Positions 3,065 through 23,824 of a stretch of 36,760 nucleotides of DNA are shown here, in pieces. A program made the position numbers and the translations under genes. This DNA is from a virus. How positions within the stretch are numbered: the stretch's first letter is position 1; every line of letters starts with the position of its first letter. The stretch covers positions 1-36,760 of IMG/VR virus record IMGVR_UViG_3300045988_135562; one strand, 5' to 3'. The notes beneath the pieces were generated by a model. The model saw nothing but the letters and a program-made list of their open reading frames with translations. It ran no database searches and was not told where the DNA came from.

Positions 3065-3089
3065 GGCCGTGCCCAAGTCGGGCACGGCC
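3065..3089 (+). repeat. Hairpin family copy 1 (GTGCCCAAGTCGGGCAC, 3069-3085)
   Basis: GGCCGTGCCC-AAGTC-GGGCACGGCC, a perfect 10-bp stem, lying between the bPH gene stop and the int start. Confidence 0.85.
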
Positions 3090-3098
3090 TTGATGCTG

Positions 3099-3470
3099 TT
3101 ATAGTACTGCCTGGGCGATATAGCGCCCGATGGCCTTAATGTCGCACTTGCCGGAGAAGTCGAAGTGCACCTTGCCCACGCCGGAGAAGTAGAGCTCCAG
3201 CTCGCTGTCAAGATCCAGCGATCCGGCAGTTTCCACGGAAAACACCGTGATCTTGCTGTAGGGCATGGATGTGAAGTCCTGCTTCTTGCCGGTGATACCC
3301 TGGACGTTGCAGGAAATAATCCGTTTGTCCGTGAACACAACGTAGTCCCGGATGGCCTGATAGCTGCCTACGATCTGCTCTCCGGGGATGAGTACGTCCT
3401 GGATAGCGTCAGGCGCGGTCTGTGTCTGCTTGAGCTTTGAGAATACTCCGTTCTTGAAATCGATCATCAT
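3099..3470 (-). CDS. Bacterial PH-domain protein (YjqA/DUF1696-like), 123 aa
   Basis: Start ATGATG at 3470 after AAAGGGGA. The sequence MMIDFKNGVFSKL...VVFTDKRII...ITVFSVETAG...LELYFSG matches my recollection of the bPH/YjqA family. The start overlaps the upstream stop by 4 nt. Confidence 0.6.
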   Translation of the reverse strand: MMIDFKNGVFSKLKQTQTAPDAIQDVLIPGEQIVGSYQAIRDYVVFTDKRIISCNVQGITGKKQDFTSMPYSKITVFSVETAGSLDLDSELELYFSGVGKVHFDFSGKCDIKAIGRYIAQAVL

Positions 3471-4057
3471 TTTCCCCTTTCTGCGCCGGAGGCGCACTGT
3501 ATTGTGTATTTGGCTGACAGCCGCAGCAGCAGACCGCCCATGACGACCGCTGCCGCGATGACCAAGAAGATAAATAGCCACGCGCCGCCGCTGAGGCCGG
3601 TGGCCTGAATAAGTCCCGCGTAAGGTATGCGGGCGTCAATGACCATGTAGACGACCAGGCCGACGGTCAGCAGGGCACAGAGCGACATGGTTACGTATAG
3701 GCCGAATCTGAACCACCCCAGCTGCGCCTGCAGCATGGCGTTGACGGCCTCCAGCGTTCTCACGTCACCGGCCTGGTCAGCCAGCTTCAGCTCCATTTCG
3801 TGGTTGGCCGCCGCAGTGGGGCGCGTGTCCGGCAGGCCGACCAGCGCGTCCAGGGATAGGCCCAGGATGGCGCAGATGGCCGCCGCCTGGGGCAGTGTGA
3901 TGTTCTGCAAGCCGGACTGCACCTTACAGATGGCGGAGTACGGCACGCCGGAACGTTCGGCTAGCTGCTCGTTGCTCAGGCCGGCCTTGGTTCGGGCTAC
4001 GCGGATAGCTTGGGGGTAGGCAGAGATACTCGCGGATAGATCGTTGAGCGCGGACAT
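3467..4057 (-). CDS. Membrane-anchored XRE-family HTH regulator (196 aa, two C-terminal TM helices)
   Basis: AGGAGG RBS. HTH segment LSNEQLAERSGVPYSAICKVQSG. C-terminal hydrophobic stretches FGLYVTMSLCALLTVGLVVYMVI and AWLFIFLVIAAAVVMGGLLL. Confidence 0.75.
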   Translation of the reverse strand: MSALNDLSASISAYPQAIRVARTKAGLSNEQLAERSGVPYSAICKVQSGLQNITLPQAAAICAILGLSLDALVGLPDTRPTAAANHEMELKLADQAGDVRTLEAVNAMLQAQLGWFRFGLYVTMSLCALLTVGLVVYMVIDARIPYAGLIQATGLSGGAWLFIFLVIAAAVVMGGLLLRLSAKYTIQCASGAERGK

Positions 4058-4084
4058 GATGCGCCTCCTAAATCCAATTTATGG

Positions 4085-4113
4085 GAAAACTGTCGGAATA
4101 CGACAATGTTTTC
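4085..4113. promoter_or_regulatory. Inverted repeat (operator candidate) in a divergent promoter region
   Basis: GAAAACTGTCG-GAATA-CGACAatGTTTTC, lying between the minus-strand start at 4057 and the plus-strand start at 4201. Confidence 0.4.
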
Positions 4114-4200
4114 TTTTTCCGAAAGATCTTTTCGCGTGAGTTGGTAGACACTTCCTGCCAATGTGGTACGATAAAATCACAAAACGAAGGGAGCGGAGAA

Positions 4201-4314
4201 ATGGATGACGATCGGAGAGAGGAACTGCTCAGGCTGTTTGACGGCCTGGACGAAGCTGGACAACTGGCCGCCCTGGAGGCGGCGCGAAAAATCAAAGACG
4301 GGGAGGTGGCGTGA
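4201..4314 (+). CDS. Small hypothetical protein (37 aa, MDDDRREELLRLFDGLDEAGQLAALEAARKIKDGEVA)
   Basis: ATG preceded by GAAGGGAGCGGAG and followed immediately by a terminator. The track's longer 4081 start has no RBS. Confidence 0.45.
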   Translation: MDDDRREELLRLFDGLDEAGQLAALEAARKIKDGEVA

Positions 4315-4341
4315 GCGGTGTCCGAGTCGGACACCGCTTTT
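4314..4341. terminator. Intrinsic terminator between convergent genes; also hairpin family copy 2 (4318-4334)
   Basis: AGCGGTGTCC-GAGTC-GGACACCGCT followed by TTTTG. Confidence 0.8.
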
Positions 4342-4346
4342 GCTGG

Positions 4347-5015
4347 TCAGCCGCCGCAGTTCTTGCAGGCGGTGTATCCCTGCGCGATGGCATCATTGAT
4401 GTCAATGGCAATCTGACTATCCTTCAGGTGGCGGCAACCGGCCCGGTGGTACTTCGACCCAGTGTTGGTGATGTAGACAGTGTATCCCTGCTCGTTGGTG
4501 GTGGGAGGAGTGTAGATGGGTGTTTCCTCCACCGGCTGGCTGGGCGCGACTGGCTCGACTGAGGCCTCCTGAGGAGGCTGAACGGGCGCTGGGTCTGCGG
4601 CGGGCGTGTTGGCCTTAGGCTCGTCCTCGACCTGGGGCTCGTCCTCCGCAGCGGCAGGCTGAGGATCTTCAGCCTCGGCTTCGTCCTCCTTGTCAGAGGT
4701 TGTCTGCTGGATGGGAAGCTGTGCCTGTGAGGTGACGCTCTGCGCCGGTGCAGCAGGAGTGTTCGCCCTGGACGTCTCCGCCGCAGGGGTCATCATGGCG
4801 GCTGCAAAGAAGATGATCGTCACGATGGCGATGCGGGCCGTTTTCTTCAGATGGAATTTCTCGCGTATCATCTCGTCCAATCCCGGCAGCGGGGCGGTCA
4901 GGATGGCCGCCGCCAGCATCAGTCCGCTGGCCAGGGACGGCAGAAACACCAGCGCCGACACGACGAAGAAGCCTGCGGCGATCCAGCGTAAAACTTCCGG
5001 CGTCAACTTTTTCAT
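4347..5015 (-). CDS. Membrane protein with acidic/Pro-rich linker and C-terminal Cys/His cluster (222 aa)
   Basis: Start MKKLTPEVL at 5015 after GGTGGGGGG. Two to three TM segments. Linker DKEDEAEAEDPQPAAAEDEPQVEDEP. C-terminus GSKYHRAGCRHL...GYTACKNCGG is a putative zinc module. Confidence 0.65.
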   Translation of the reverse strand: MKKLTPEVLRWIAAGFFVVSALVFLPSLASGLMLAAAILTAPLPGLDEMIREKFHLKKTARIAIVTIIFFAAAMMTPAAETSRANTPAAPAQSVTSQAQLPIQQTTSDKEDEAEAEDPQPAAAEDEPQVEDEPKANTPAADPAPVQPPQEASVEPVAPSQPVEETPIYTPPTTNEQGYTVYITNTGSKYHRAGCRHLKDSQIAIDINDAIAQGYTACKNCGG

Positions 5016-5033
5016 ATTCAGTTCCCCCCACCT

Positions 5034-5057
5034 GCGCCCGATGGGCGCTGTTTTTTT
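5034..5057 (+). terminator. Terminator-like hairpin oriented for the plus strand
   Basis: GCGCCC-GAT-GGGCGC followed by TGTTTTTTT. It lies between two minus-strand genes, so on the minus strand it has no U-tract. Confidence 0.35.
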
Positions 5058-5376
5058 ATTTCTCCCGCTCACGCTTTTGGCGGAGCATGAAGGCAAAGAG
5101 TTCGTTCTGCTGCTCGGCGGTCATGCCGTCCAGCAGGCGGGCAAATTCCTCCCGCACGGGATCAGGCGGCGCAGGATCTTCGCCCAGCAGGTCGCTGACG
5201 GTGCAGTCCAGGTACTGGGCCAGCATCTGCACCTTCGCCACGGACGGCGTTTGGCCTCGCTCAATATCATTTATAAAACTTACGCCAACTCCGGCTTCGC
5301 GGCACGCCACCGTGGGCTTGACACCTTTTGCGGCACAACGCGTCTTGATATTCTGCACAAAAAGCTCCTTGTCCAT
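5056..5376 (-). CDS. cI-like XRE-family repressor (106 aa)
   Basis: HTH segment GVKPTVACREAGVGVSFINDIERGQ. It sits divergent to a strong plus-strand promoter with palindromic operators. Confidence 0.8.
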   Translation of the reverse strand: MDKELFVQNIKTRCAAKGVKPTVACREAGVGVSFINDIERGQTPSVAKVQMLAQYLDCTVSDLLGEDPAPPDPVREEFARLLDGMTAEQQNELFAFMLRQKREREK

Positions 5377-5385
5377 GATGACCTC

Positions 5386-5468
5386 ATACTATATAGATTT
5401 ATGCAAAGTGACAATTATTTGTAATTACAAAAATACGACTTGACAATTCGTGATTACGAATTTATGAT
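5386..5468. promoter_or_regulatory. Immunity switch: divergent promoters with two palindromic operators
   Basis: Minus strand: TTGTCA (5409-5414), 17 nt, TAGTAT (5386-5391), ending 9 nt before the cI-like ATG. Plus strand: TTGACA (5440-5445), 17 nt, TATGAT (5463-5468). Operators are TTTGTAATTACAAA (5418-5431, perfect) and ATTCGTGATTACGAAT (5446-5461), each preceded by GACAATT. Confidence 0.7.
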
Positions 5469-5508
5469 TAACTTGTCCCTCAGGTAAGAGCAAGAGGGAG
5501 GTGAGAAG

Positions 5509-5610
5509 ATGCGACGATGGCGAGAGTTTATGCGGAAGTATGGAATAACCATTGCTGTATCAGCGGCCACAACTGTCGTATTCCGGCTATTGTTAGATTG
5601 GCTGCTATAG
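5509..5610 (+). CDS. Small hydrophobic peptide (33 aa, MRRWREFMRKYGITIAVSAATTVVFRLLLDWLL)
   Basis: Strong RBS AGGGAGGTGA 6 nt upstream. It is the first ORF after the plus-strand promoter. It overlaps the 3' end of the convergent gene 5528..5941 by 83 nt. Confidence 0.4.
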   Translation: MRRWREFMRKYGITIAVSAATTVVFRLLLDWLL

Positions 5611-5941
5611 ATACGAGGATGGGCATCCACACGCTTTCCAGTAAAAGCTCTTTTTGATGCCGCCTTTGCTCCGTGAGGTAGTCGTCCAGTGCCATCTCGC
5701 CCTTGGGCGTGATGCGGTAGACTCCGAGACCCCGGTGAAGCTCGCGTGTTCCCGACAGGTCGGTATCCATGTCTTCGGTCAGAAAGCCGACATCGGGCTT
5801 GGACAACGCGGCGATGCGATGATCGACAGCGCCTGTGTCCGGGAGTGCCTTTTTAGCGTCTGAAGCTGACGCGGGGCTGTGTTCTCGGAAGTACTTCAGG
5901 ACTTCGGCGTCGCCGGCGGTGATGCGGTTCTCGCTTTCCAT
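5528..5941 (-). CDS. Winged-helix-like protein with C-terminal TM segment (137 aa)
   Basis: Start MESENR at 5941 after AGAGGGGG. GVYRITPKGEMAL looks like a wing motif. C-terminal hydrophobic stretch VWMPILVSIAANLTIAGI. Confidence 0.55.
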   Translation of the reverse strand: MESENRITAGDAEVLKYFREHSPASASDAKKALPDTGAVDHRIAALSKPDVGFLTEDMDTDLSGTRELHRGLGVYRITPKGEMALDDYLTEQRRHQKELLLESVWMPILVSIAANLTIAGIRQLWPLIQQWLFHTSA

Positions 5942-6136
5942 CCGATTGCCCCCTCTTATCTCTGCGCCTGAGTTGGACACAACTCGTCTTCCCCCGGCGA
6001 GTACTCCTCCCCCAAAGTATCATCGGACGAGGAAGCGGGTGGTGTGTTTGGTTGCTGACATGACTATCATACCACCCGTTTTCGCCGGGGTCAAGGTGAA
6101 AATTCACAAACGTAGAAAGGAGTGGTTTGCGTGTCG

Positions 6137-6322
6137 ATGAAGGAGCTGCGGGAGCGGCGCGGCCTGACCCAGGCGCAGGTGGCTGACAAGATCAACGTGG
6201 ACAGATCGGCGGTGACGAAGTGGGAGACCGGCGACAGCACGCCGCTGCGGAAGTACCGCCCCGCGCTGTGCGAACTGCTGGGCTGCACCGAGGCGGAGCT
6301 GCTGGCCGACGCTGCCAGCTAA
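6137..6322 (+). CDS. Cro-like XRE-family HTH protein (61 aa)
   Basis: GAAAGGAG RBS. HTH segment GLTQAQVADKINVDRSAVTKWETG. The palindrome GTGAAAATTCAC (6096-6107) lies just upstream. Confidence 0.8.
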   Translation: MKELRERRGLTQAQVADKINVDRSAVTKWETGDSTPLRKYRPALCELLGCTEAELLADAAS

Positions 6323-6344
6323 ATCATACGACAGGGAGGAGGAA

Positions 6345-6797
6345 ATGTCCATGCCGAGGGGCAACGGAAATATCTATCAGGCCGCCCGAAAAGCTGCCGG
6401 ACTGACGCAGGAAGCGGCAGCGGAGCGTTTGGCGGTAAGCGTGGAGAGCATGAGAGCCTACGAGACGGGCCTGCGGCTGCCGGGCGACGATGTAGTCACG
6501 CGGATGATGGCGGTGTATGACGCCCAGTACCTGGGAGCGCAGCATTTGCAGTGCAAGCCCTGGCTGCTGCCGGAATGTGTGATGATGGCCCAGCCTGAGC
6601 CGCTGCCGACGGCTGTTATCAAGCTGGTGCGGCGGGTAATGGCCTTCGCCGAGGCCCACCGCAGCGACCAGCTGATGGAGATCGCCGAGGACGGCATCAT
6701 CAGCGATGGTGAGCGGGATCTGTTTGACGAGATCACCACGGAGCTGGGAGACATTGTGCAGGCGGCGCTGGCGCTGGAATACGCGAAGGAGGTGTGA
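6345..6797 (+). CDS. XRE-family HTH protein with C-terminal extension (150 aa)
   Basis: GGGAGGAGG RBS. HTH segment GLTQEAAAERLAVSVESMRAYETG. Confidence 0.75.
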   Translation: MSMPRGNGNIYQAARKAAGLTQEAAAERLAVSVESMRAYETGLRLPGDDVVTRMMAVYDAQYLGAQHLQCKPWLLPECVMMAQPEPLPTAVIKLVRRVMAFAEAHRSDQLMEIAEDGIISDGERDLFDEITTELGDIVQAALALEYAKEV

Positions 6798-6799
6798 CC

Positions 6800-7048: not shown

Positions 7049-7062
7049 AGGGAGGTGAGGTC

Positions 7063-7221: not shown

Positions 7222-7274
7222 GAACAATACCAGTATAACAGATATTTTGACGTTCGCAAGGGGGCGAGAGAAAT

Positions 7275-8024
7275 TTGGCAAAAAAAATTGAGCAACCGGC
7301 CTACTGGGCCGTGATCCCCGCCGACGTGCGCTACGATGACAAGCTGCCGCCCAACGCCAAGCTGCTGTACGGCGAGATCAGCGCCTTGTGCAACCGGGAG
7401 GGCTTTTGCTGGGCCGGCAACGAGTACTTCGCGGAGCTTTTTGGATGGTCGGCAAAATCCGTGACGCGGCTGGTGTCCGCGCTCCGGGACGGAGGTTACA
7501 TAGACACGGACATGGTGGCCTCCGGGACGGGTGCAACGCGGCGCATCTACGCCGGTGTGTATCCGGGGGGTCTCCGCAATTTTGCGGAGGGGGGGTCTCC
7601 GCAAAATTGTCTAGGGGTCTCCGCAAAATTGTCTACACCCCCACAATATAACAGGAATAATATAATTAATAATACCCCCCTTACCCCCCAGGGGGAAAAA
7701 GTGTGCAAAAAACGTGTGCACAAGGACGGGCCGGACTGGAAGCCGGAGCGGTTCGCGGGACTATGGGACTACTACCCCAGGAAGGGGCGGAAGAACAAGC
7801 AGCGGGCCATCCAGGCGTGGGACAAGCTGAAGCCGGACGACGCGCTTATCGACACCATGGCGCGGGCGCTGACGAAGCTGAAGGCCACGGAGGAGTGGCA
7901 GCGCGACATCGGCATCCCCCACGTGGCCACGTGGCTGAACGGGGAGCGGTGGCACGACGCGGACGAGCTGGACAGCCCTGACGGGCCTGACGGCGGCGGA
8001 GAGGCGGTGTACGGATGGCAGTAG
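7275..8024 (+). CDS. Replication initiator/replisome organiser (N-terminal wHTH, DnaD-like) with an internal origin
   Basis: TTG start per the track. N-terminus YGEISALCNREGFCWAGNEYFAELFGWSAKSVTRLVSALRDGGYI. Iterons and an AT-rich block are embedded mid-gene. Its stop overlaps the dnaB start. Confidence 0.65.
   Translation: MAKKIEQPAYWAVIPADVRYDDKLPPNAKLLYGEISALCNREGFCWAGNEYFAELFGWSAKSVTRLVSALRDGGYIDTDMVASGTGATRRIYAGVYPGGLRNFAEGGSPQNCLGVSAKLSTPPQYNRNNIINNTPLTPQGEKVCKKRVHKDGPDWKPERFAGLWDYYPRKGRKNKQRAIQAWDKLKPDDALIDTMARALTKLKATEEWQRDIGIPHVATWLNGERWHDADELDSPDGPDGGGEAVYGWQ
7567..7675. repeat. Origin of replication: iterons plus AT-rich unwinding block
   Basis: GGGGTCTCCGCAAAATTGTCTA occurs in perfect tandem (7592-7613 and 7614-7635), with a diverged copy GGGGTCTCCGCAATTTTGCGGAG at 7567. 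CACAATATAACAGGAATAATATAATTAATAATA follows. Confidence 0.75.
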
Positions 8025-9433
8025 CGGCTGAGAACAGTCTAGCAGGCCGCCTGACCGCGGAGAACGCTGTCATCGGCGCGATGCTCATTGACGAGACTAC
8101 CGTGTCGCCCATCCTGGCGGCTGTGAACGCCTCGGACATCTGCAACCCGGACAATCGGAGGATCTTCCAAGCGGCGCGGGCGCTGATGCTGGACGGTCTG
8201 CCGGTAGACCCGGTCACGATCCGGGACAAGCTGGGTCAGGGCATTGAGGAGCGGCTGATCCAGCTGATGGAGATCACGCCCACCAGCGCCAACTGGCGGG
8301 AGTACGCGGAGATCGTCCGCCAGCAGGCGGCGCTGGAGCGCATCCGGGCTATCGCGGCGGAGCTGGCCGGCGCTGTGAACGTGGACGACTGCCGGGAGCG
8401 CATCGCGGCCTTGGGTGAGCTGATGAGCACCGGCCAGGGCGTGGATGCCTGGAGCATGAAGGACGCCTATGAGCATTTCATGGCCGCCCAGGGCAGCGAG
8501 GCGAAACGCGAGTACATCAGCTACGGCATCCGGGAGCTTGACGAGGGCACGTACACAGAGCCGGGGGACGTGGTTGTCATCGGCGGTGAGCCCTCCAGCG
8601 GCAAGACGGCCTTTGCGCTGGCGCTGGCCTACCACATGGCCAAGACGCGCAGCGTGGGGTTCTTTTCCCTGGAGACGGGACAGAAGAAGCTGACGGAGCG
8701 CCTGGTGTCCACAGTGCTGGGCTTGGACTTCAACGTCGTCAAGCGTCAGCAGATGACGGAGGCCGACTGGCAGACGGTGGCCGAGGGCGGCCAGGAGTTC
8801 ACGGCGCGGCGGTTGACGCTGCTGCGGGGCAGCGGCATGACCGCCACGCAGATCCAGGCGGTGAGCAAGGCCTACGGATTTGACGTGATCTTTGTGGACT
8901 ACGTCCAGCTTGTCAGGCCGGAGACCGACCCGCGGGCCGGATCGGTGCAGGCGGTAGCGGCGATCTCCATGTCGCTGCACACCTTCGCCCAGTCCAGCGG
9001 GACGCTGGTGGTGGAGCTGGCGCAGCTGGCCCGTCCGCAGAAGCAGGGCGGATGGAAAGAACCGACCATGCACGACCTGAAGGAGACGGGCCAGCTGGAG
9101 CAGGACGCGGACATGGTGATGCTGCTCTATAAGCCCGGCCCGAAGGATCGCGTGCCATGGCTAGATGAGCCGCTCGACCCGGCGAAGTCGAGAATGCTGA
9201 AAATCGACAAGCAGAAGGAGGGCCGCCTGGGCCGCTGGCCCATGTTCTTCGATGGTGCGCACCAGCGCTTCAGCGTGATGGCCGGGCCGGACGGGCAGTC
9301 TGTCTTACGGCATTTTACGTCTGCCGGGAAAGCTCAAAAGACGAAGGCACGGGCGCAGTCGCCGGGGCAGATCGGGCTGCGTGAGATCAGTCCGCACGAC
9401 CCGGAGTGCCCGTGGCCGGAAAGGGAGGCGTGA
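8015..9433 (+). CDS. dnaB: Replicative DNA helicase (DnaB family)
   Basis: N-terminus AENAVIGAMLID. Walker A GGEPSSGKTAFAL. Also FVDYVQL and QLARP...DLKETGQLEQDAD. Confidence 0.9.
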   Translation: MAVAAENSLAGRLTAENAVIGAMLIDETTVSPILAAVNASDICNPDNRRIFQAARALMLDGLPVDPVTIRDKLGQGIEERLIQLMEITPTSANWREYAEIVRQQAALERIRAIAAELAGAVNVDDCRERIAALGELMSTGQGVDAWSMKDAYEHFMAAQGSEAKREYISYGIRELDEGTYTEPGDVVVIGGEPSSGKTAFALALAYHMAKTRSVGFFSLETGQKKLTERLVSTVLGLDFNVVKRQQMTEADWQTVAEGGQEFTARRLTLLRGSGMTATQIQAVSKAYGFDVIFVDYVQLVRPETDPRAGSVQAVAAISMSLHTFAQSSGTLVVELAQLARPQKQGGWKEPTMHDLKETGQLEQDADMVMLLYKPGPKDRVPWLDEPLDPAKSRMLKIDKQKEGRLGRWPMFFDGAHQRFSVMAGPDGQSVLRHFTSAGKAQKTKARAQSPGQIGLREISPHDPECPWPEREA

Positions 9434-9434
9434 A

Positions 9435-9749
9435 ATGCAGGTTGGCGATGTGATCAAATTCAGACCGTTTGCTCTGCGGTACGCAAAGGACACAGAGCTT
9501 AACGCGCCCTTCATGCCGGGAACGGTGGTGTGGGTGCATCCGCAGGGTCGGTTCGCCGTCGTGGAGCGGCGGACGGGATTTTACACGTACCGGGAATGCA
9601 TCCCGGTCAACAGAACGATGAGGAAAGAGGTACTAAACTGTGAGAACGATGGCAATCATGAACCTAAAGGGCGGTGTGGGCAAAACCGTAACCGCCCTCA
9701 CTTTGGCCGACGTGCTGCGCCGCGCCGGGAAGACTTCCGTGATCGTTGA
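9435..9749 (+). CDS. Hypothetical protein (104 aa); its 3' end overlaps parA by 110 nt
   Basis: ATG follows AAGGGAGG. The N-terminal 60 aa look protein-like. The Arg-rich tail overlapping parA is doubtful. Confidence 0.4.
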   Translation: MQVGDVIKFRPFALRYAKDTELNAPFMPGTVVWVHPQGRFAVVERRTGFYTYRECIPVNRTMRKEVLNCENDGNHEPKGRCGQNRNRPHFGRRAAPRREDFRDR

Positions 9750-10428
9750 CTGCGACGGGCAGATGAGCCTGACGCGGTTCTGCCTGCCGGATTTTGACCC
9801 CGACAACGCGCCCAGCGTGGCGGACGTGCTGCTAGGTTGCTCGGAGGCGGTGTGGAGCGACAACACCATCCCGCAGGACGCCCTGGGACGGATACAGCTG
9901 CTTCCGGGGTCGAGCACGCTCTACGAGCTGGACGTTAAGGCCCTCAAGAGCAGCATCCACAGCATCCACTCTCTCCGGGACTTTCGCGACGCGGCGGCGG
10001 AGGACGGCGTGGACTACATGATCTTCGATTGCCCTCCCGGCTTTACTGCGGCAAGCTGCGCCGCCCTGATGGCCTCCGACGAGGTGGTGATCCCTACTGT
10101 CGTGGATGGCTTCTCGCTGATGGGCGTGGGAGACATGGTCGCCCAGGTCGCCAGTATGCGGCAGGCCAATGCCGCTATCAAAATCGCCGGAATACTGATC
10201 TGCCAGTGGCACAACAGCGAGGCGGTGCGGCAGGGCGAGGCGCTGCTGCGCCAGCGCTGGCCGGTGTTTAACACAGTGATCCGCCGCACGGAGCGGCTGC
10301 CTGAGAGTACCTTCATGCGGCGGTCCGTGATGGATTACAGCCCGCGCAGCGCGGCGTCCCTGGACTACCGTGCGTGGGTGCGGGAATATTTGCACGAGGA
10401 GGTTCGAGATGATGGCCAAAAAGTTTGA
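9640..10428 (+). CDS. parA: ParA/Soj-type partition ATPase
   Basis: Deviant Walker A NLKGGVGKT near the N-terminus. Also DCDGQ and FDCPPG motifs. Confidence 0.85.
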   Translation: MRTMAIMNLKGGVGKTVTALTLADVLRRAGKTSVIVDCDGQMSLTRFCLPDFDPDNAPSVADVLLGCSEAVWSDNTIPQDALGRIQLLPGSSTLYELDVKALKSSIHSIHSLRDFRDAAAEDGVDYMIFDCPPGFTAASCAALMASDEVVIPTVVDGFSLMGVGDMVAQVASMRQANAAIKIAGILICQWHNSEAVRQGEALLRQRWPVFNTVIRRTERLPESTFMRRSVMDYSPRSAASLDYRAWVREYLHEEVRDDGQKV

Positions 10429-11926
10429 CATGGGCGATTTCGCCAAGACGCTGGCACAGCCCGTGTCCGAGTCGGGCACGGGGCGGGAGCAGATCGAGTA
10501 TATAGACGTGGATCTGTTGGACGGTGATCCGAGCAATTTTTATCAGCTCAACGATTTGGACGCGCTGGCTGATAACATCGCCACCATCGGCCTCCAGCAA
10601 CCCGTCCGCGTGAGGGATGGCGAGAATGGCCACGTGACGATCGTGTCGGGACACCGCCGCACGGCGGCTATCCGCGAACTGGTGGCGGGCGGACGGACTG
10701 ACCTGCGGGATGTGCCCTGCATCCGGGAGCGAGACGATGCCTCGCCGGCCCTGCGTGAGCTTCGCTTGATTTACGCCAATAGTGCCACCAGGCAACTGAG
10801 TTCTGCGGAGATCGCCCAGCAAGCCGAGAAGGTGAGGGAGTTACTCTACCGGCTGAAGGAGGAGGGCTACGAGTTTCCGGGGCGTATGCGGGATCATGTG
10901 GCGGAGGCCTGTAACATCAGCAAGAGCAAGCTGGCGCGGCTGGAGAAAATCGAGAAAGGGCTGGCTTCGTGCTACCGGGACGCCTGGAAGGCTGGGACGC
11001 TGCCGGAGGACACGGCGGACGCACTGTCTAGCCTGCCGGAGGACGTGCAGGAGCGCATCAAGCGCGTTTGCCCTAAGACTACGCCGACCGCGGGCCGTAT
11101 CCGGGATACAGTCAAGCGCGGAGAGTACCTGGCGGCGTCTTTTAAGTGCCCCGGCGGAGCGGCCTGTACGCACATGGACAAGTTTTTTCGGCATGACCTA
11201 AAGGAAAACAGCTGGGAAACCTGCGGCGGCGAGAAATGCTGCCTGAAGTGTAGCTCCGGCGGAGCGCATGATCCTGCGTCCTACTACGGCGCTGCCTGCG
11301 CGGAGATGTGCGGTAAGGCGCGGGAAAAATACGAGAAGGCCAAAGAGAAGAAAAAACTGTCCGATGCTGCCGCTGCAGAGAAAGTTCAAAATGAAACCGC
11401 CGCCAGGGTGCGGGCAGACGCCCGGCGTATTGTCCGGGCGGCGGACGCTGCGGGCCTGGGCGACGATGTGAAGCTGCGCTATGACTACGGAAGCCCCATG
11501 GTCGTCGGGCTATTGAGGCGAGTTTGCGCGGGAGAAATTCCTGATGAGGCAGGCTACCTCTTCCGAGGCAGCGGCCTCATGCCGTGGCGGGCCACGGACG
11601 CCGTGGGAACTGCTAAGACGCTGCACTGCTCCGTGGACTACCTGCTGGGTCTGACGGATGATCTCAGCCCTGCTGCCGCAGAACCCGGTCAGACCTCGCT
11701 GGCATTGTGGATGCCGGGCGGCATCTCGCCGGGCGATCCGCGCGACGTAGTGGCGGATTTTGTCGTGGGCGAGGACGTGCGCGGGCGCAAGACGATTATG
11801 CGGAAGGCGTGCCGGTGGGATGGGTCGTCATTCCTCTTCCGTGAGGGCGGCGCTGAAATAGACGCAGAGGTGGTGCGGTGGCTGGCGCTGCCGGAGGTGG
11901 AAAAGGAGGACGAGAACGATGATTAA
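10409..11926 (+). CDS. ParB N-terminal-domain protein with HTH, Cys-rich and second XRE-like HTH modules (505 aa)
   Basis: Start MMAKKF follows GGAGG. ParB/Srx box VRVRDGENGHVTIVSGHRRTAAIREL. Cys cluster CPGGAACTH...CGGEKCCLKCSSGG. The motif CSVDYLLGLTDD is typical of the end of an XRE HTH. Confidence 0.75.
   Translation: MMAKKFDMGDFAKTLAQPVSESGTGREQIEYIDVDLLDGDPSNFYQLNDLDALADNIATIGLQQPVRVRDGENGHVTIVSGHRRTAAIRELVAGGRTDLRDVPCIRERDDASPALRELRLIYANSATRQLSSAEIAQQAEKVRELLYRLKEEGYEFPGRMRDHVAEACNISKSKLARLEKIEKGLASCYRDAWKAGTLPEDTADALSSLPEDVQERIKRVCPKTTPTAGRIRDTVKRGEYLAASFKCPGGAACTHMDKFFRHDLKENSWETCGGEKCCLKCSSGGAHDPASYYGAACAEMCGKAREKYEKAKEKKKLSDAAAAEKVQNETAARVRADARRIVRAADAAGLGDDVKLRYDYGSPMVVGLLRRVCAGEIPDEAGYLFRGSGLMPWRATDAVGTAKTLHCSVDYLLGLTDDLSPAAAEPGQTSLALWMPGGISPGDPRDVVADFVVGEDVRGRKTIMRKACRWDGSSFLFREGGAEIDAEVVRWLALPEVEKEDENDD
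10460..10482 (+). repeat. Hairpin family copy 3 (10463-10479), inside the parB-like CDS
   Basis: CCCGTGTCC-GAGTC-GGGCACGGG. It encodes VSESGT in frame. Confidence 0.85.
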
Positions 11927-13919: not shown

Positions 13920-13937
13920 TGTGGAGGTGGAATTGAC

Positions 13938-14093
13938 GTGAAGCCATGCGAACGGCCTATTGACACACTGCGGGAGTTTTTGGCCGACCCTGAGACAAAT
14001 ATCTCGTCCAAGGTCTATAACGCGATCCTGCTGGCGGTGGAGCTGATCGAAGCGCGTGAGCGGGTCACTGACCTGATGGAGGAGCTGACATGA
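13938..14093 (+). CDS. Small ORF (51 aa) coupled to the Rep gene
   Basis: GTG start 8 nt after GGAGGTGG. The stop overlaps the Rep ATG (ATGA). Confidence 0.45.
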   Translation: MKPCERPIDTLREFLADPETNISSKVYNAILLAVELIEARERVTDLMEELT

Positions 14094-14824
14094 CTGCGGG
14101 CGAGAACTCCTATGTCGTTGTCAGGCAGCGGGCGGGCGACCTTGAGAAAGTCATGGTCACTGACAACTACCGATACCTGCGACTTTATGGGCCGGAGGCC
14201 ACGCGGCGGCGCTGTGGCCCGGCCCTGAGCCGCACCAGTGTTGACAAGCTGGAGTTGCGGTTGGCGCTGTTTAAGTATGACGGCGTTTTTTGGACGCTGA
14301 CTTTCGATGACGCGCATCTCCCGGCAAGCCGCGCCGAAGCGGTCAAGGCGTGGAAGGCGTTTATGCGGAAGCTCCGACGATGCAGAGGATCTCCTGTTGA
14401 CTACTATGTCTACCGCATCGAGGGCCTCCACGGTGACAAGCGGTGGCATATCCATGTTTTCCTCCGCGGCGGTGACTTCACGGCGGAGGACGTCGCCTGG
14501 GCATGGGGCGGGCGCGGGAACATCAAAGCGGAGGTGTGGACGCGGGAGCGGGTGCTGGAGCGCCGGGACTACGACCCGGACTTTGTAGCGGGCTACCGCG
14601 GACTGGCGCGGTATTTTACCAAGGAACTCTCCGAAGTCGGGCGGCATCCCTGGGGCTGTTCTCAAGCGCTGGGGAAATGCATTCCTAAGCCTCGCATCGG
14701 CACGTCTGTAAGCGGCGCTGTTCGACCGCCGCCGGGGGCGGCTCTGCTCCCGGCGGACGGCGTGCCGAAGCTAACAGGATGGGGCGTGTACGGCTATTGC
14801 CGCTATCTTCTTCCTGGAAGTTAG
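14090..14824 (+). CDS. HUH-superfamily rolling-circle replication initiator (Rep_1/pC194-like motifs)
   Basis: Motif 1 is FWTLTFD, motif 2 is RWHIHVFL (HUH) and motif 3 is ARYFTKEL (Y-x-x-K), in the canonical order and spacing. Confidence 0.65.
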   Translation: MTAGENSYVVVRQRAGDLEKVMVTDNYRYLRLYGPEATRRRCGPALSRTSVDKLELRLALFKYDGVFWTLTFDDAHLPASRAEAVKAWKAFMRKLRRCRGSPVDYYVYRIEGLHGDKRWHIHVFLRGGDFTAEDVAWAWGGRGNIKAEVWTRERVLERRDYDPDFVAGYRGLARYFTKELSEVGRHPWGCSQALGKCIPKPRIGTSVSGAVRPPPGAALLPADGVPKLTGWGVYGYCRYLLPGS

Positions 14825-15602: not shown

Positions 15603-15630
15603 CCCCCCCTCGGAAAAATGGCCCTCGCGC

Positions 15631-15850
15631 CCTGGACGCTACTCGCGGGGGTCCAGGACAATCCAGCGATTTTCGCGTCTGCGCGTTGCCGCGCAGCGCG
15701 TGGGCGCGAATATCGCCGGGCAATTTTCAAAAATCTGCGGTTTTGCGGGGCGCATCGTGCCCCAGCCATATTCTCTTTCCCCTCAGGGGTGGGCGGCTCA
15801 CCCGCCCGTCCCGCAAAGCCGCAGATGTGTGATGTGCCCAAGTCGGGCAC
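15631..15850 (+). other. Densely structured non-coding region (cos/packaging site or structured RNA candidate)
   Basis: Four hairpins. H1: CCTGGAC...GTCCAGG (15631-15657). H2: GCGATTTTCGCG...CGCGAATATCGC (15666-15716) enclosing CTGCGCG-TTGC-CGCGCAG. H3: ATCTGCGGTTTTGCGGG (15733-15749) pairing with CCCGCAAAGCCGCAGAT (15810-15826) and enclosing GGGCGG-CTCAC-CCGCCC. H4: the family hairpin at 15834-15850. The track ORFs here lack an RBS. Confidence 0.5.
15834..15850 (+). repeat. Hairpin family copy 4
   Basis: GTGCCC-AAGTC-GGGCAC, 17 nt upstream of the ATG at 15867. Confidence 0.85.
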
Positions 15851-15866
15851 GGAAAGGGAATGGCTT

Positions 15867-15926
15867 ATGGAGATCAAAATGCGGCGGCTGACGGAGCTCG
15901 TGCCCTATGCCGCCAACGCGAAAAAA
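15867..15926 (+). other. Out-of-frame 5' segment of the ParB-nuclease/methylase gene (true start; ends in an A6 tract)
   Basis: The ATG follows GGAAAGGGAA and encodes MEIKMRRLTELVPYAANAKK. This would continue as HDARQVANLAESIRRYGF in the +1 frame after the A6 run at 15921-15926. Confidence 0.6.
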
Positions 15927-17091
15927 GCACGACGCCCGGCAGGTGGCGAACCTGGCGGAAAGTATCCGGCGCTATGGGTTCGTCCAGCCGGTGGTGGTTG
16001 ACGCCGACGGCGTGATCGTCATCGGGCATGGCCGCGTCCTGGGCGCGAAGGAGGCTGGGTTGGAGGAAGTGCCCTGCGTCTGCGTGGATAATCTGACGCC
16101 GGAGCAGGTGCGCGAACTGCGGCTGCTGGACAATAAGCTCAACGAGAGCGCCTGGGATCTTGACCTGTTGGCGGGTGAGCTGCCAGGGCTGGATCTGAGC
16201 GGCTTTGACGTCGAGTGGGGTTTGTCGGATGAGCTGGACGGCTCGGTGGTTGAAGACGACTACGACTTTAGCTGCCCGGTCGCGGTCAGGAGCAAGGTCG
16301 GTGAAGTGTATCAGCTGGGCGAACACCGTCTCATGTGCGGCGATAGCACGTCTCTGGCAGACGTACAAAAGCTCGTAGGGGGGGCACAAATGGACTTGCT
16401 GCTTACTGACCCTCCGTACAATGTCAACTATCAGGCCGCCGCCGGTAACATGAAGAACGACTGTATGAAAAGCTCAGGCTTCAGATCATTTCTACTGTCT
16501 GCATTCTCTGCGGCGGTAGCGGTGATGAAGCCGGGCGCTGCGTTTTACGTGTGGCACAGTGAGGTGGAGGGCTACAATTTCCGAGGCGCTTGCATGGACG
16601 CGGGCCTCGTCCTGCATCAATGTTTGGTGTGGGTGAAGTCTCAGCTTGTGCTTGGCCGGCTCGATTTTCAGTCCCGGCACGAGCCGTGTCTGTATGGTGA
16701 GGTTGAAGCTGAGGACGATGAATTGCAGCCGTGTTTGTACGGCTGGACGGATGGCAAAAAACACTATTTTTTCAAGAACCGGCGACAAACAAGTGTGCTC
16801 AATTTCGACAAGCCGACGAAATCGGCAGAGCACCCAACTATGAAGCCGGTGAAGCTGTTTGACTATCAAATGCAGTGCTCCAGTAAACCGGGAGAGAATG
16901 TGCTTGATCTGTTTGCCGGGAGCGGGACAACGGTCATCGCTGCGGAGCAGAACGGGCGACGGGCTTACTGTATGGAGCTTGATCCTAAGTATGTGGACGT
17001 TATTATTGACCGCTGGGAAAAATTCACGGGAAAACGGGCTGTGTGCCTGACGGAAGAGGAGGATTGCTGTGGCGCATCAGAGAGAACTTGA
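15907..17091 (+). CDS. ParB-like nuclease domain fused to a beta-class N6A/N4C DNA methyltransferase (orphan); 5' end frameshifted
   Basis: ParB/Srx segment SIRRYGFVQPVVVD...IGHGRVLGA. Motif IV LLLTDPPYNV precedes motif I FAGSGTTVIAAE. The ATG at 15907 has no RBS; see 15867-15926. Confidence 0.85.
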   Translation: MPPTRKKHDARQVANLAESIRRYGFVQPVVVDADGVIVIGHGRVLGAKEAGLEEVPCVCVDNLTPEQVRELRLLDNKLNESAWDLDLLAGELPGLDLSGFDVEWGLSDELDGSVVEDDYDFSCPVAVRSKVGEVYQLGEHRLMCGDSTSLADVQKLVGGAQMDLLLTDPPYNVNYQAAAGNMKNDCMKSSGFRSFLLSAFSAAVAVMKPGAAFYVWHSEVEGYNFRGACMDAGLVLHQCLVWVKSQLVLGRLDFQSRHEPCLYGEVEAEDDELQPCLYGWTDGKKHYFFKNRRQTSVLNFDKPTKSAEHPTMKPVKLFDYQMQCSSKPGENVLDLFAGSGTTVIAAEQNGRRAYCMELDPKYVDVIIDRWEKFTGKRAVCLTEEEDCCGASERT

Positions 17092-19334: not shown

Positions 19335-19343
19335 GAGGTGTGC

Positions 19344-21301: not shown

Positions 21302-21322
21302 GAATCGAAAGGAGAAAAAAGA

Positions 21323-22798
21323 ATGAACAACAATGACATTCGCACCCGGGAGGCCCTGCGGCAGGCTCTCCAACAGGCTGCCGTTTCCGGCGACACCGGC
21401 GCGTTCTCTTCCGCCTTGGACGAGATGATGCAGCGCCTCTGCCTGGACGTCCAGGCCGAGTACGAGCATCGGTTTGATGAACTCCAGCAGGAGCTTGACA
21501 GTCGCATCCTGGCCCAGCGGGGCGCGCACCAGTTGACGGCTGAAGAGCGCACCTACTACCAGAGGCTGGGCGAGGCCATGAAGGCTACCAACCCCCAGCA
21601 GGCCGTGACCGGCCTGGATGTGGCGCTGCCTAAGACGGTGATCGACTCCGTCTTTGAGGAGCTGCAGACAGCGCACCCCCTGCTGAGCCGCATCAACTTC
21701 CGCGCCACCGGCGGCGCGGTGGAGATCATGGTCAACACCAACGGCTACGAGGAGGCTGCCTGGGGCGACCTGTGTGACGACATTGTCAAGGATCTGACGG
21801 CGGGCATCAAGAAGATCCCCGCCACGCTGCTGAAGTTGTCCGCGTTCCTGCCCGTGTGCAAGGCTATGCTGGATCTCGGCCCTGAGTGGCTGGATAACTT
21901 CGTGCGGCAGACTCTGTACGAGGCACTGAGCAATGGCCTGGAGGCCGGTATCGTCACCGGCGACGGCAACAAAAAGCCCATCGGCATGAACCGCCAGGTA
22001 GGCGACAATGTGGTCGTGACCGGCGGTGCGTACCCGGAGAAGGCGGCTATCAAGGTCACTGACCTGTCCCCGGCCACCGTGGGCAATCTGCTGTCCATTA
22101 TGGCGGCTGATCCCAACGGCAAGCCCCGCCGTGTCCGTGACGTGATCTTCCTGGTCAATCCTCAGGACTATCTTCAGAAGGTCATGCCCGCCACCACGCT
22201 GATGTCTCCCGACGGTACGTATCGCAACGACGTGATGCCCTACCCCATGGACGTGATCCAGACGGCGGCGCTGCCCCGCGGCAAGGCTATCATGGGCATT
22301 GCTTATCGCTACCTGGCGATGGCGGGCACGTCCCCGGAGGGCCGCATCGAGTACAGCGACCACTACCGCTTCCTGGAGGACGAGCGCGTCTATCTGATCA
22401 AGGCCTATGCCAACGGCATGCCGCTGGACAACAACGCCTTCCATGTGCTGGACATCTCCGGCATCCAGCCCGCCACCTATAAGGTGACGCAGGTGACTGC
22501 GCCCACTCCGTCCGATGACGCCACTCTGAGCGCCCTGTCCATCGGCTCTCTGTCTCTGACGCCCGCGTTCGCCTCGGCCACCATCAGCTACACCGCGACC
22601 ACCACCAACGCCACCAACACCATCACCGCTGTCCCCTCTGACGCGGCGGCGGCCCTCAAGGTGACGGTAAACGATGTGGAGATCGACAACGGCACGGCGG
22701 CGACCTGGCAGATCGGCAGCAACACCGTGAAGGTGCTGGTGACTGCCCCCGATGGCGAGGCCACCAAGACCTACACTGTCACTGTCACCAAGTCCTGA
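21323..22798 (+). CDS. Major capsid protein (HK97 fold) with C-terminal Ig/cadherin-like beta-sandwich domain
   Basis: It follows the protease. The N-terminal delta-like coiled region and the size fit a capsid protein. The last ~95 aa (ATLSALSIGSLSLTPAFASATISYTATT...TKTYTVTVTKS) fit the cadherin-like beta-sandwich pattern. Confidence 0.8.
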   Translation: MNNNDIRTREALRQALQQAAVSGDTGAFSSALDEMMQRLCLDVQAEYEHRFDELQQELDSRILAQRGAHQLTAEERTYYQRLGEAMKATNPQQAVTGLDVALPKTVIDSVFEELQTAHPLLSRINFRATGGAVEIMVNTNGYEEAAWGDLCDDIVKDLTAGIKKIPATLLKLSAFLPVCKAMLDLGPEWLDNFVRQTLYEALSNGLEAGIVTGDGNKKPIGMNRQVGDNVVVTGGAYPEKAAIKVTDLSPATVGNLLSIMAADPNGKPRRVRDVIFLVNPQDYLQKVMPATTLMSPDGTYRNDVMPYPMDVIQTAALPRGKAIMGIAYRYLAMAGTSPEGRIEYSDHYRFLEDERVYLIKAYANGMPLDNNAFHVLDISGIQPATYKVTQVTAPTPSDDATLSALSIGSLSLTPAFASATISYTATTTNATNTITAVPSDAAAALKVTVNDVEIDNGTAATWQIGSNTVKVLVTAPDGEATKTYTVTVTKS

Positions 22799-22799
22799 C

Positions 22800-23105
22800 A
22801 TGGCGGGCGCGGTGAGTGCCGCGCTCCTGAGCGCCGTCAAACTGTGGTGCAACATCACCTGGAGCGATGAGGCTACGGACGCCAAGGTGTCCGACCTCAT
22901 CGCTTCCGGGGAAGCCTATATTGACGGCAAGTTGGGCGCGGCGGGAGACTATGACACTCCCGGCGAACCGCTGACGCTGCTGAAGGAATACGTGCGGTAC
23001 GGCCTGAGCGACGCGCTGGACGTGTACGAGACGAATTACCTGAACCGGCTGCTGGCTATGCAGCACGGGAGGCGGGTGACGCAGTATGCGGCAGATACCG
23101 TTTAG
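22800..23105 (+). CDS. Head-tail connector (gp6-like)
   Basis: The position plus LSAVKLWCNITWSDEATD...EYVRY is typical of gp6-like connectors. Confidence 0.65.
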   Translation: MAGAVSAALLSAVKLWCNITWSDEATDAKVSDLIASGEAYIDGKLGAAGDYDTPGEPLTLLKEYVRYGLSDALDVYETNYLNRLLAMQHGRRVTQYAADTV

Positions 23106-23469
23106 GCCGGACGACCGGCAGATCACCCAGCCCTACCGGGACGGTGTGGTGAGGATCTACACCGTGACCGACGCGGCCCAGCCGGGCTATCAGCCCCGGC
23201 CCGCCCTGACGCTGCTGGAGACGCTGTTTTACCAGGAGCGGCGCGTGGGCTTGCAGCGGTATTACTCCAGCAAGCAGGTGCAGGTACAGGTGGAGCGGGT
23301 GATCCGAACGCAGCTCCGCCCCTCCGTCAGCCCGCAGTGCGTGGCGGTGACGGAGGACGGCGTGCAGTACGGCATCGACCTGGTGCAGCGGGCGGAGGAC
23401 GTCTACCCGGCGTCCATGGATCTGACGCTGGTCAAGATCGAGCAGAAATACGAGGTGTCCCATGAGTAA
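23086..23469 (+). CDS. Head closure/head-tail adaptor protein
   Basis: Called from gene order, size, and an N-terminus typical of head-closure proteins (DRQITQPYRDGVVRIY). Confidence 0.6.
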   Translation: MRQIPFRPDDRQITQPYRDGVVRIYTVTDAAQPGYQPRPALTLLETLFYQERRVGLQRYYSSKQVQVQVERVIRTQLRPSVSPQCVAVTEDGVQYGIDLVQRAEDVYPASMDLTLVKIEQKYEVSHE

Positions 23470-23824
23470 GAGAAGGACGGTGTCCGAGTCGGGCACAAAC
23501 CCCCCGCCGCTGTGGGCGCAGCGGATCATTGCCGCGCATCTCGCGGTGACGGACGCGGTGAGTCACGGAGGGCGGCTGCAATCCGACCGCTACCTGGTGT
23601 GGCAGGAGGACGGGGCGAACGACTTTGAGGCCGAAGGTATCCACGCCGAGAAGGCCGTCAAGGGCAGCACCGACCTGTTTACCAAGCAGGAGTTTGACCC
23701 CTGGCGGGACGAGCTGGAGGCGGCTTTTGACGCGGCGGAGATCGTGTGGGTGCTGAACAGCTGCCAGTTCGAGGAGGAGACCGGCTTTTGGCACTACGAG
23801 TGGGACTGGGAGGTGTTTGCCTGA
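23462..23824 (+). CDS. Neck/head-tail joining protein (unassigned family)
   Basis: Called from gene order. It is overlap-coupled on both sides. Confidence 0.5.
   Translation: MSKRRTVSESGTNPPPLWAQRIIAAHLAVTDAVSHGGRLQSDRYLVWQEDGANDFEAEGIHAEKAVKGSTDLFTKQEFDPWRDELEAAFDAAEIVWVLNSCQFEEETGFWHYEWDWEVFA
23480..23496 (+). repeat. Hairpin family copy 5, inside the CDS at codons 7-12
   Basis: GTGTCC-GAGTC-GGGCAC. It encodes VSESGT in the same frame as copy 3. Confidence 0.85.

Follow-up and report, generated by a model that had tools for sequence, protein, structure and literature searches.

This report addresses a 17-bp palindrome, GTGYCCRANTYGGRCAC in consensus, that is dispersed over the genome of a temperate phage, and the ParB-family protein of the same phage that probably binds it. 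The genome is IMG/VR record IMGVR_UViG_3300045988_135562, and the whole stretch that was analysed, positions 1-36,760, is referred to here as the window. Several described systems scatter such sites over a replicon, among them phage N15 and related telomere phages. The N15 partition protein SopB has four separate inverted repeat (IR) sites, each with the short perfect palindrome GTGCGACC-NN-GGTCGCAC (PMC7205306). Like N15, the phage of the window is temperate, encodes a ParA/ParB-type pair and carries several single copies of its palindrome with no single tandem array. The differences are equally clear. N15 is a non-integrating linear plasmid prophage of Escherichia coli, whereas the window phage has a tyrosine integrase. 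The spacing is 8+1+8 here and 8+2+8 in N15, and the sequence differs too. The ParB of the window is a protein of 505 amino acids (aa) with added Cys-rich, coiled-coil and second helix-turn-helix (HTH) parts, one site here lies almost always inside parB (77 of 80 loci), and binding here is predicted. Ravin and Lane in 1999 and Grigoriev and Lobocka in 2001 are said to have placed the N15 sites in different regions of the genome, phage-gene regions included.

The plasmid RK2 offers a second comparison. Its protein KorB is a ParB-family CTPase sliding clamp with operators at many places, often near promoters, and it functions both in partition, with IncC/ParA, and in silencing (PMC11790492). The likeness lies in a palindromic site dispersed over a replicon and in a ParB-family protein, which here is the candidate binder. 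RK2 is a plasmid and not a phage, silencing here is a conjecture, and a KorA- or TrbA-like partner was not identified in the window phage. The KorB operator, O_B, is the 13-bp site TTTAGCSGCTAAA. In Bacillus subtilis, the spo0J coding sequence contains a parS. The Spo0J-parS pair resembles the present one in having a palindrome of 16-17 bp, a site within the parB gene and a GxRR box, and Spo0J and Noc are the best sequence and fold matches to the window protein. However, the site is unrelated to the canonical parS TGTTNCACGTGAAACA, the protein is distant (E ~1e-4), and the sites stand on a phage genome, inserted in coding ends.

Mycobacteriophages also carry dispersed repeats. Cluster O phages contain more than 30 copies per genome of a 17-bp dyad repeat, 5'-TGTTCGGNNNCCGAACA, between genes or near their 5' ends; its centre is asymmetric without orientation preference, and its authors predicted a dimeric DNA-binding protein (PMC4351075). 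The present phages carry 5-8 copies per genome rather than more than 30, of another sequence and in another host phylum. No protein has been assigned to the Cluster O repeats, and those phages lack parAB, whereas a specific candidate binder is available here. The stoperators of Cluster A, which are the sites of L5 gp71, are asymmetric 13-bp sequences dispersed in short intergenic spaces in strict orientation to transcription. They are comparable as repressor-type sites scattered over a temperate phage genome; the sites described here are symmetric and unoriented. No new kind of element is revealed by the present family, which most likely belongs to the known kind of dispersed ParB sites.

The Palindrome and the ParA/ParB Pair of the Window

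We favour the reading that the copies are dispersed parS-like sites, at which duplex DNA is probably bound, for loading or as a centromere, by the ParB-family protein encoded at 10409-11926 together with the ParA encoded at 9640-10428. The parB gene is preferred over the genes that are inherited with it because it contains a site and because its recognition helix covaries with the site. An earlier reading of the letters alone (the sequence-only reading) had named this role first among several candidates, and both the linkage and the helix and site variants speak for it.

Five exact matches to GTGYCCRAGTCGGRCAC lie in the window, starting at 3069, 4318, 10463, 15834 and 23480, all on the plus strand, as the sequence-only reading had reported. 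None was found in 100 dinucleotide-preserving shuffles of the window (0 expected), and the hand estimate of chance occurrence that came with that reading, about 3e-5, is arithmetically correct. Gene calls and domain scans agree with the contexts it had given for the five copies. Two further members of the family, a variant and a degenerate copy, had escaped it and were added by relaxed searches. The observation is real and highly non-random; its framing as a strand-locked hairpin is wrong. The sites and the two partition genes are as follows.

3069-3085, plus strand: site 1, GTGCCCAAGTCGGGCAC, inside a palindrome with 10-bp arms, ggccGTG...CACggcc; the bPH stop (3099) and the int ribosome-binding site (RBS) and start (3042), both on the minus strand, lie on either side.
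4318-4334, plus strand: site 2, GTGTCCGAGTCGGACAC, a perfect 8+1+8 palindrome extended by gcg/cgc; flanked by convergent open reading frames (ORFs) 4081-4314 (+) and 4347-5096 (-); terminator-like on the plus strand, with a UUUUG tail.
5964-5980: degenerate copy with 3 mismatches, reading GTGTCCAACTCAGGCGC on the minus strand; 5' of gene 5528-5941 (-) and its RBS, about 20 nt from the ATG.
9640-10428, plus strand: ParA-type Walker ATPase (Pfam AAA_31/CbiA/ParA, NCBIfam ParA_partition).
10409-11926, plus strand: ParB-family protein of 505 aa (Pfam ParB_N), the proposed binder of the sites.
10463-10479, plus strand: site 3, GTGTCCGAGTCGGGCAC, encoding VSESGT at codons 19-24 of the ParB-like gene when ATG 10409 is taken as codon 1; the hallmark in-gene copy of the family.
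15834-15850, plus strand: site 4, GTGCCCAAGTCGGGCAC, heading the packaging operon, immediately 5' of the RBS and start codon (ATG 15867) of the ParB_N-methylase.
23480-23496, plus strand: site 5, GTGTCCGAGTCGGGCAC, at codons 7-12 of the neck/connector gene 23462-23824.
29024-29040: variant copy, GTGCCCGTTTCGGGCAC, with T and not A at position 8, within the tail gene 28334-30226.

Several of these positions are recognizable in other phages (loci are cited by L numbers). Site 1 has homologues in L341 (1605) and L069 (1605). The position of site 4, whose end lies 16 nt before ATG 15867, is kept in all relatives with a large terminase (TerL) at least 87% identical, including those without the methylase. 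The degenerate copy looks like a decaying or relaxed site, because the homologous position in L055 (3460) holds an intact one. Relatives retain the variant at 29024-29040 as GTTTC or GTTCC, with stem changes from CG to TG; it could be a weak site, or coding constraint alone could maintain it.

The two genes have the organization of a ParABS system: adjacent ParA and ParB_N genes, with the end of the ParA gene (10428) overlapping the start of the ParB-like gene (10409), a GxxRxxA box and an HTH in the second protein, and a palindrome within the operon. The consensus differs from the canonical parS, and the site would therefore represent a different specificity class. The 505-aa protein is, as judged from its sequence, a distant ParB. 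Its layout comprises an N-terminal peptide resembling a ParA contact, ParB_N with a GHRRTAA box, an HTH (..ACNISKSKLARLEKI..), a Cys-rich segment, a coiled coil, a second Xre-like HTH and a C-terminal beta domain. In a phmmer search against the PDB, Noc and Spo0J match residues 21-188, the GxRR box included, at E ~1e-4; GHRRTAA aligns with GERRWRA of Noc, and the Spo0J alignment spans residues 39-188, through the HTH. A Foldseek search gives only ParB, Noc and KorB among its first 11 hits, although these hits are weak and come from a model with a mean predicted local distance difference test (pLDDT) score of 54. The family counts more than 4,000 proteins at E <= 1e-10, within which the GHRR box and the HTH are nearly invariant, and public sources name close homologs "chromosome partitioning protein". 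Beyond residue 215 the tail of the protein contains Cys-rich CxxC/CC motifs, a coiled coil of about 55 residues, the second Xre-like HTH, which ends in DYLLG, and the C-terminal beta domain, which is confidently modelled.

The Motif Follows ParB

The motif is retained at homologous places in three unannotated human-faecal phage records that are 78-87% identical to the window. Their central pentamers are AATTC, GATTC and GAATT, and GTGTCC/GGACAC is swapped for GTGCCC/GGGCAC. The copy that precedes the methylase gene in MT835558 is inverted at its centre with respect to the other copies, and elsewhere one phage has GACTC where a clearly homologous site of another has GAGTC. VSESGT, VSNSDT and VPESGT all occur as the ParB peptide over the site, with the palindrome retained throughout, which indicates selection on the nucleotides and not on the peptide. 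The possibility raised by the sequence-only reading, that the motif might be missing from close relatives and show no positional conservation, is not what these phages display.

More distant relatives give the same picture. A search of a genome collection with the ParB protein returned 15 prophages in metagenome-assembled genomes (MAGs) of Oscillospiraceae (Faecousia, Pelethomonas and others), with a G+C content of 49-63% and a ParB that is 35-50% identical, except in L243 (84%). GTGYCC-N5-GGRCAC occupies the same N-terminal place of parB in 12-13 of the 15, and double changes from S/D to P/G in these copies retain the palindrome. The site inside parB that was found in 77 of 80 loci, through an alignment-based search of IMG/VR, usually lies at codons ~15-25. 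Nearly all loci with enough flank have further sites on both sides, upstream in the lysogeny module at a distance of about 6-7 kb and downstream at 2.5-8 kb. The site statistics cover 264 sites in 96 ParB-anchored loci, or 136 clusters after homologous sites are collapsed; their density is 264 sites in 1.50 Mb, one per 5.7 kb, where less than one is expected by chance. Even in AT-rich phages, with no more than 23-27% identity in ParA and ParB, the parB gene contains GTGTCC-N5-GGACAC, in some cases as two sites separated by 36 or 69 nt.

Pairs with a spacing of 36 nt also occur in some of the MAG prophages. In L253 (7296/7332), L256 (11240/11276) and L037 (3390/3459), the paired sites sit in the linker after the DNA-binding region, where they are encoded as repeated VSNSDT-like peptides and form small centromere-like clusters.

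A search anchored on TerL (77 loci) separates the motif from the structural genes. Every relative with TerL at least 87% identical has the neck and packaging sites, and 16 of 16 such relatives with enough upstream DNA carry ParA and ParB. The replication/partition module, ParA and ParB included, is missing from eight relatives with TerL at most 75% identical and 8.5 kb or more of upstream DNA, and about 160 kb of their sequence contains no site. What the divergent prophages have in common with the window is the HTH_36-DnaB-ParA-ParB-Rep block alone and not the structural genes, so the motif follows that block. Across phages of Oscillospiraceae and other Clostridia, it is co-inherited with the ParB family.

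The site variant, GTGTCC or GTGCCC, tracks the variant of the ParB recognition helix over six helix classes, as counted in half-sites with T or C at position 4, without correction for the tree. Class S-A-P-K-L-A (S-A-P-K-L-A-R-L) has 136 T and 2 C, with mostly A at position 7, and T prevails as well in class K-T (37 T, 3 C) and class R-T (15 T, 1 C). The balance moves to C in class K-S (60 T, 124 C) and class R-S (20 T, 28 C), and C is the only base seen in class K-S with Ala changed to Ser (0 T, 54 C). The K- and R- classes behave in parallel, which points to more than one switch in what would be a recognition code.

A Probable Duplex Site with Two-Fold Symmetry

The sequence-only reading had described a stem of 6 bp around a loop of 5 nt that is locked in orientation. 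In the larger sample, the motif is a near-perfect palindrome over all 17 bp, GTGYCC-RA-N-TY-GGRCAC, and with its flanks it extends to 19-21 bp of two-fold symmetry, [C/A][T/G]-GTGYCC-RA-N-TY-GGRCAC-[A/C][G/T]. The supposed loop is part of this palindrome, as positions 7, 8, 10 and 11 are conserved symmetrically (R7 in 100%, A8 in 95%, T10 in 92% and Y11 in 98% of the 264 sites) around a centre that can be any base. A8 and T10 are complementary, yet a one-base loop leaves them unable to pair. Copies with G at position 7 are 8+1+8 palindromes, and the orientation seen in the window comes down to the centre G and to A7 in two copies; a centre G in all five has a probability of about 1/16. The centre base differs at homologous sites of close relatives, and over the 136 clusters it is distributed as T46/A41/C25/G24 with no strand bias, which leaves nothing of the orientation lock. 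A symmetric site with an unbiased centre base is also not of the stoperator type.

The flanks and the half-sites follow the same rule. Among the 136 cluster representatives, the base at -1 is distributed as T68/G51/C14/A3 and the base at +1 as A69/C37/G24/T6, so that T or G stands at -1 in 119 and A or C at +1 in 106, and closing pairs of A-T or C-G are rare though they would serve a hairpin equally well. In genomes with both GTGTCC and GTGCCC half-sites, 59 mixed sites are observed and 61.0 +/- 4.8 are expected from within-genome permutation. The half-sites are therefore independent, and the compensatory stem changes that the sequence-only reading had suggested looking for do not appear.

The folding of the window copies is variable. 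RNA hairpins of copies 1-3, with stems lengthened by the flanks as that reading had observed, reach -23 to -28 kcal/mol. Copies 4 and 5 have the core stem only, with a folding energy no better than that of shuffles, and the range across the window copies is -28 to -12 kcal/mol. Site 2, which had been called a genuine terminator, does lie between convergent genes and is terminator-like, and it alone has a U tract, as had been said. Still, this is a short tail of just four U after the stem, and the site failed a terminator scan; sites 3-5 are without a U tract. Homologues of site 2 in the lysogeny module of relatives bear longer T tracts (L120 6948, L122 591), and some homologous lysogeny-module copies in relatives do qualify as terminators. 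Terminator use is an add-on for a subset of the sites. A scan for known RNA families and tRNAs gave no Rfam match and no tRNA, and nothing characteristic of a structured RNA family was found, the loop being symmetric and stem-preserving covariation absent. Recognition as duplex DNA by a symmetric dimer, and not as an RNA or single-strand hairpin, is most likely what these patterns reflect, because the loop is symmetric, the flanks are sequence-specific, the half-sites do not covary, the centre is unbiased and the fold strength is variable.

Placement of the Sites in Genes

The two intragenic copies of the window had been noticed to share a reading frame, and this is real and general: coding copies in unrelated proteins are almost always in the frame V-S-x-S/L-D/G-T. 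Of the three frames that stay open, it does the least harm, and the sharing of it by unrelated proteins is explained by its tolerance for a DNA site. A peptide function is not indicated, because intergenic copies carry the same nucleotides. The neck junction gives an example. Site-less relatives have a tight overlap there (...YEV-stop/ATG-S-W...). In the window clade, the site stands within a 15-codon N-terminal extension of the neck protein (MSKRRT-VSESGT-NPPP-LWAQR...), and in L248, L091, L414 and L039 it stands in a C-terminal extension of the upstream gene (...YE-VSKLDT-stop). Sites are found in both orientations relative to the adjacent gene. As such comparisons show, the sites are DNA-level insertions at gene junctions or in terminal or linker codons. 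The comparison of the neck junction (window 23462-23510) also took in L290, L297 and L298.

A role of the sites as recombination hot spots or module boundary sequences was considered and rejected. In loci L258-L423, 228 homology breakpoints lie within 40 nt of sites, as opposed to 62 +/- 7.5 for random positions, a 3.7-fold enrichment. However, junctions with a site are no more often breakpoints than other gene junctions of the early region in the window, and the enrichment results from the intergenic position of the sites and lends the role no specific support.

Competing Explanations

One competitor is a hairpin in RNA, or in the transcribed strand, at the 5' ends of genes, acting as a terminator or attenuator, as an mRNA stabiliser or as the target of a translational regulator. 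The sequence-only reading had listed such hairpins among its candidates, and we consider them quite unlikely. The high stability of sites 1-3 would suit them, and three statistics that lean away from a duplex site are in their favour. At least 3 extra paired flank bases occur in 24 of 136 clusters where about 2 are expected, several then followed by T tracts; a Shine-Dalgarno (SD)-like sequence lies within 16 nt on one side of ~40% of clusters and ~19% of random positions; and the mixed type GTGTCC...GGGCAC, which is compatible with G-U pairing on the parB-sense strand, outnumbers the C-A type GTGCCC...GGACAC by 20 to 8 clusters. The last excess is what a sense-strand hairpin predicts, but coding constraint or mutation bias can also produce it, and in the usual frame the change from D to G is milder than that from S to P, which would favour the same type. 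We read the long palindromes, the T tracts, the proximity to SD sequences and the 20-to-8 excess as limits on placement in a compact genome with occasional co-option as a terminator stem. The properties set out above run counter to an RNA hairpin, in that the best-conserved inner positions, 8 and 10, cannot pair, the half-sites do not covary, the flanks favour T/G...A/C and not any complementary pair, copies 4 and 5 fold like shuffled sequence, and neither the centre base nor the orientation to the adjacent gene is biased. Additionally, sites with C-A mismatches stand inside parB in several lineages, and a hairpin leaves unexplained both the linkage of the motif with ParB and the tracking of the helix variants.

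Other proteins might read the same duplex. The candidates in the replication/partition block, apart from ParA and ParB, are the following.

7275-8024: HTH_36 protein.
8015-9433: DnaB.
14090-14824: Rep_ORF2-G2P-like protein (weak Pfam hit REP_ORF2-G2P, E = 1.7e-6).

That the sites are operators of another dimeric DNA-binding protein, with ParB merely linked, is unlikely. This protein could be the HTH_36 protein, an Xre-type regulator of lysogeny, the DUF3102 partner described below or a host factor. The whole HTH_36-DnaB-ParA-ParB-Rep block is co-inherited; the site-bearing loci without ParB, L414 and L418, have an HTH_36 homolog that the site-less L415 and L421 do not; and the DUF3102 proteins of L414 and L418 share an HTH variant, GYSEKTAQNFMRLAREFSN, absent in L415 and L421. 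Yet the HTH_36 homolog is undetectable in 10 of the 48 loci that have ParB, sites and at least 5 kb of upstream DNA, L384 with its 8 sites among them, and in the AT-rich phages that carry sites inside parB, no homolog of HTH_36, DnaB or Rep lies nearby. Loci without sites can still have ParA and DnaB. The site is embedded in parB and not in the genes of the other candidates, and its variant tracks the ParB helix over the six classes. A host factor would probably not explain why sites are absent from ParB-less relatives with a common structural module. The Rep-like protein, a putative HUH enzyme for which the copies would be single-stranded DNA hairpin substrates (origins or nick sites), had likewise been proposed. 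Its weak Pfam hit and the place of its gene within the co-inherited block are compatible with this, but Rep-like homologs are present in L415, L416, L417, L421 and L422, none of which has any site, no asymmetric nick sequence is conserved around the N of the symmetric centre, and 5-8 dispersed origins per genome in both orientations would be unprecedented. Such a role is very improbable. Equally hard to credit are GANTC-type methylase targets or regulatory sites and a generic repetitive extragenic palindromic (REP)-like repeat of the host, the first touched on by the sequence-only reading and the second named by it as a refuting outcome. Three window copies do contain GAGTC, and the methylase gene starts 16 nt past site 4. 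However, with A7 in 123 of the 264 sites (47%) and T11 in 111, GANTC is absent from about half of them, and sites are kept without a methylase in L281, L309 and L310, as is the methylase without sites in L298-L301 and L321. Against a host repeat, genome-wide scans with exact GTGYCCRAGTCGGRCAC give single background hits among the matches listed, mostly in unrelated high-GC taxa and outside Clostridia. GTGTCCAAGTTGGACAC is, again among the matches listed, concentrated in genomes of Oscillospiraceae and other Clostridia, often with 2-5 copies per 8 kb, and 61 of the 120 listed 8-kb stretches that contain it hold homologs of genes of this phage, which indicates a prophage-borne motif and not a chromosome-wide repeat.

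Points Against the ParB Reading and Loci Without ParB

Besides the 20-to-8 excess already given, the following points weigh against dispersed ParB sites. The link between motif and ParB is correlative and partly confounded by shared ancestry, and the conserved block also holds the HTH_36 protein, DnaB and the Rep-like protein, so that ParB is not the sole co-inherited DNA-binding candidate. The glutamate of box III of ParB CTPases is not conserved (ANS..R where others have ENxxR), and because of this the clamp chemistry may differ from that of other ParB CTPases. As the window phage has an integrase, it may not need partition. Finally, loci L414, L418 and L419 carry 4, 2 and 1 perfect sites, and no ParB_N domain was found in ~21 kb of these loci, where the partner of ParA is a DUF3102 protein; 3 kb and 9.5 kb of the L414 contig lie outside the stretches examined. 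Relics, use in trans and another binder are all compatible with these ParB-less sites and cannot be told apart. It is chiefly these loci that keep our confidence in dispersed ParB sites from being higher.

L414 8722-9675, L415 8692-9666, L418 8676-9662, L421 8623-9666: ParA partner with DUF3102 and a coiled coil.

L415 and L421 have the same type of DUF3102 partner and no sites. The partner and the ParB family share only the N-terminal peptide M-x-K-x-D-L-G. Homology of the partner to the ParB DNA-binding domain was considered and rejected, as hhalign found just this shared peptide. Three of the four L414 sites lie in modules that ParB-bearing phages also have and L415 and L421 do not; the fourth (12146) lies at the point where homology to site-less relatives ends. 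At sites 12146 and 14284 of L414, homology to L415/L421 ends at the site or ~12 nt before it. L351, a ParB-bearing prophage with the same type of site, comes from the same source genome as L414. Hitch-hiking of the sites through mosaic exchange, or their use in trans, is plausible.

Proposed Function and Significance

If ParB is the binder, each monomer would read one GTGYCCRA half-site through its HTH. The dimer may load at the site as a clamp and then spread to neighbouring DNA, as other ParB CTPases do, the GHRR box being present. The N-terminal peptide M-A-K-K-F-D-M-G would engage ParA, and this engagement would position or segregate phage genomes that are not integrated. Occupancy of the sites may also dampen expression in the manner of KorB, since most sites stand at the 5' ends of genes or operons. 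Sites 1 and 2 are built into long hairpins and probably double as terminators or attenuators.

A bolder version is possible, though doubtful. The ParB-like protein would then not be a segregation factor, or not only one, and would clamp the temperate genome of about 37 kb from 5-8 sites at operon heads and in its own gene, as a KorB-like silencer or timer. The Ser/Thr code of its helix would provide an immunity-like specificity between co-resident prophages, and the sites would have been gained by short in-frame insertions at junctions. If this is true, it would reveal a widespread ParB-based regulatory layer in the Clostridia phages of the human gut.

Dispersed ParB sites, if binding is confirmed, would provide the cognate site of a very large and uncharacterised ParB family in temperate phages of Oscillospiraceae and related gut Clostridia. 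The consensus could be used as a simple sequence marker for these phages, and the natural series of helix and site variants would be material for studies of ParB specificity. The family also illustrates how compact phage genomes can accommodate a DNA site, by short coding extensions at the N or C terminus of a protein in a single tolerated frame. It raises the question of why integrase-bearing phages keep a ParABS system with scattered sites, for which a plasmid-like carrier state, the positioning of replicating genomes or KorB-like silencing would be answers.

Other Features of the Window

The remaining genes mentioned above are listed here.

1906-3042, minus strand: integrase.
3099-3581, minus strand: bPH protein.
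From ATG 15867: packaging block, with the ParB_N-methylase, then TerS and TerL.

The ParB_N-methylase (15867-17091) is frameshifted relative to MT835558 at an A-run at about 15915-15925, and an ORF appears only from 15907. The frameshift may be a sequencing error, a pseudogene or slippage. Among the phage loci examined, none is related to the window in positions 1-1900, a region that may represent cargo or mark the edge of the element. To the left of the integrase gene, strong terminator-like hairpins lie at 1138-1168 and 1816-1854, with 14 and 17 pairs and T tracts. Strong divergent promoter-like sites are found in the region 5376-6345, at 5440-5468 (+), 6094-6066 (-) and 6351-6323 (-). They are flanked by the Xre-type HTH genes 5056-5376 (-) and 6345-6797 (+), in the region of the lysogeny/early switch.

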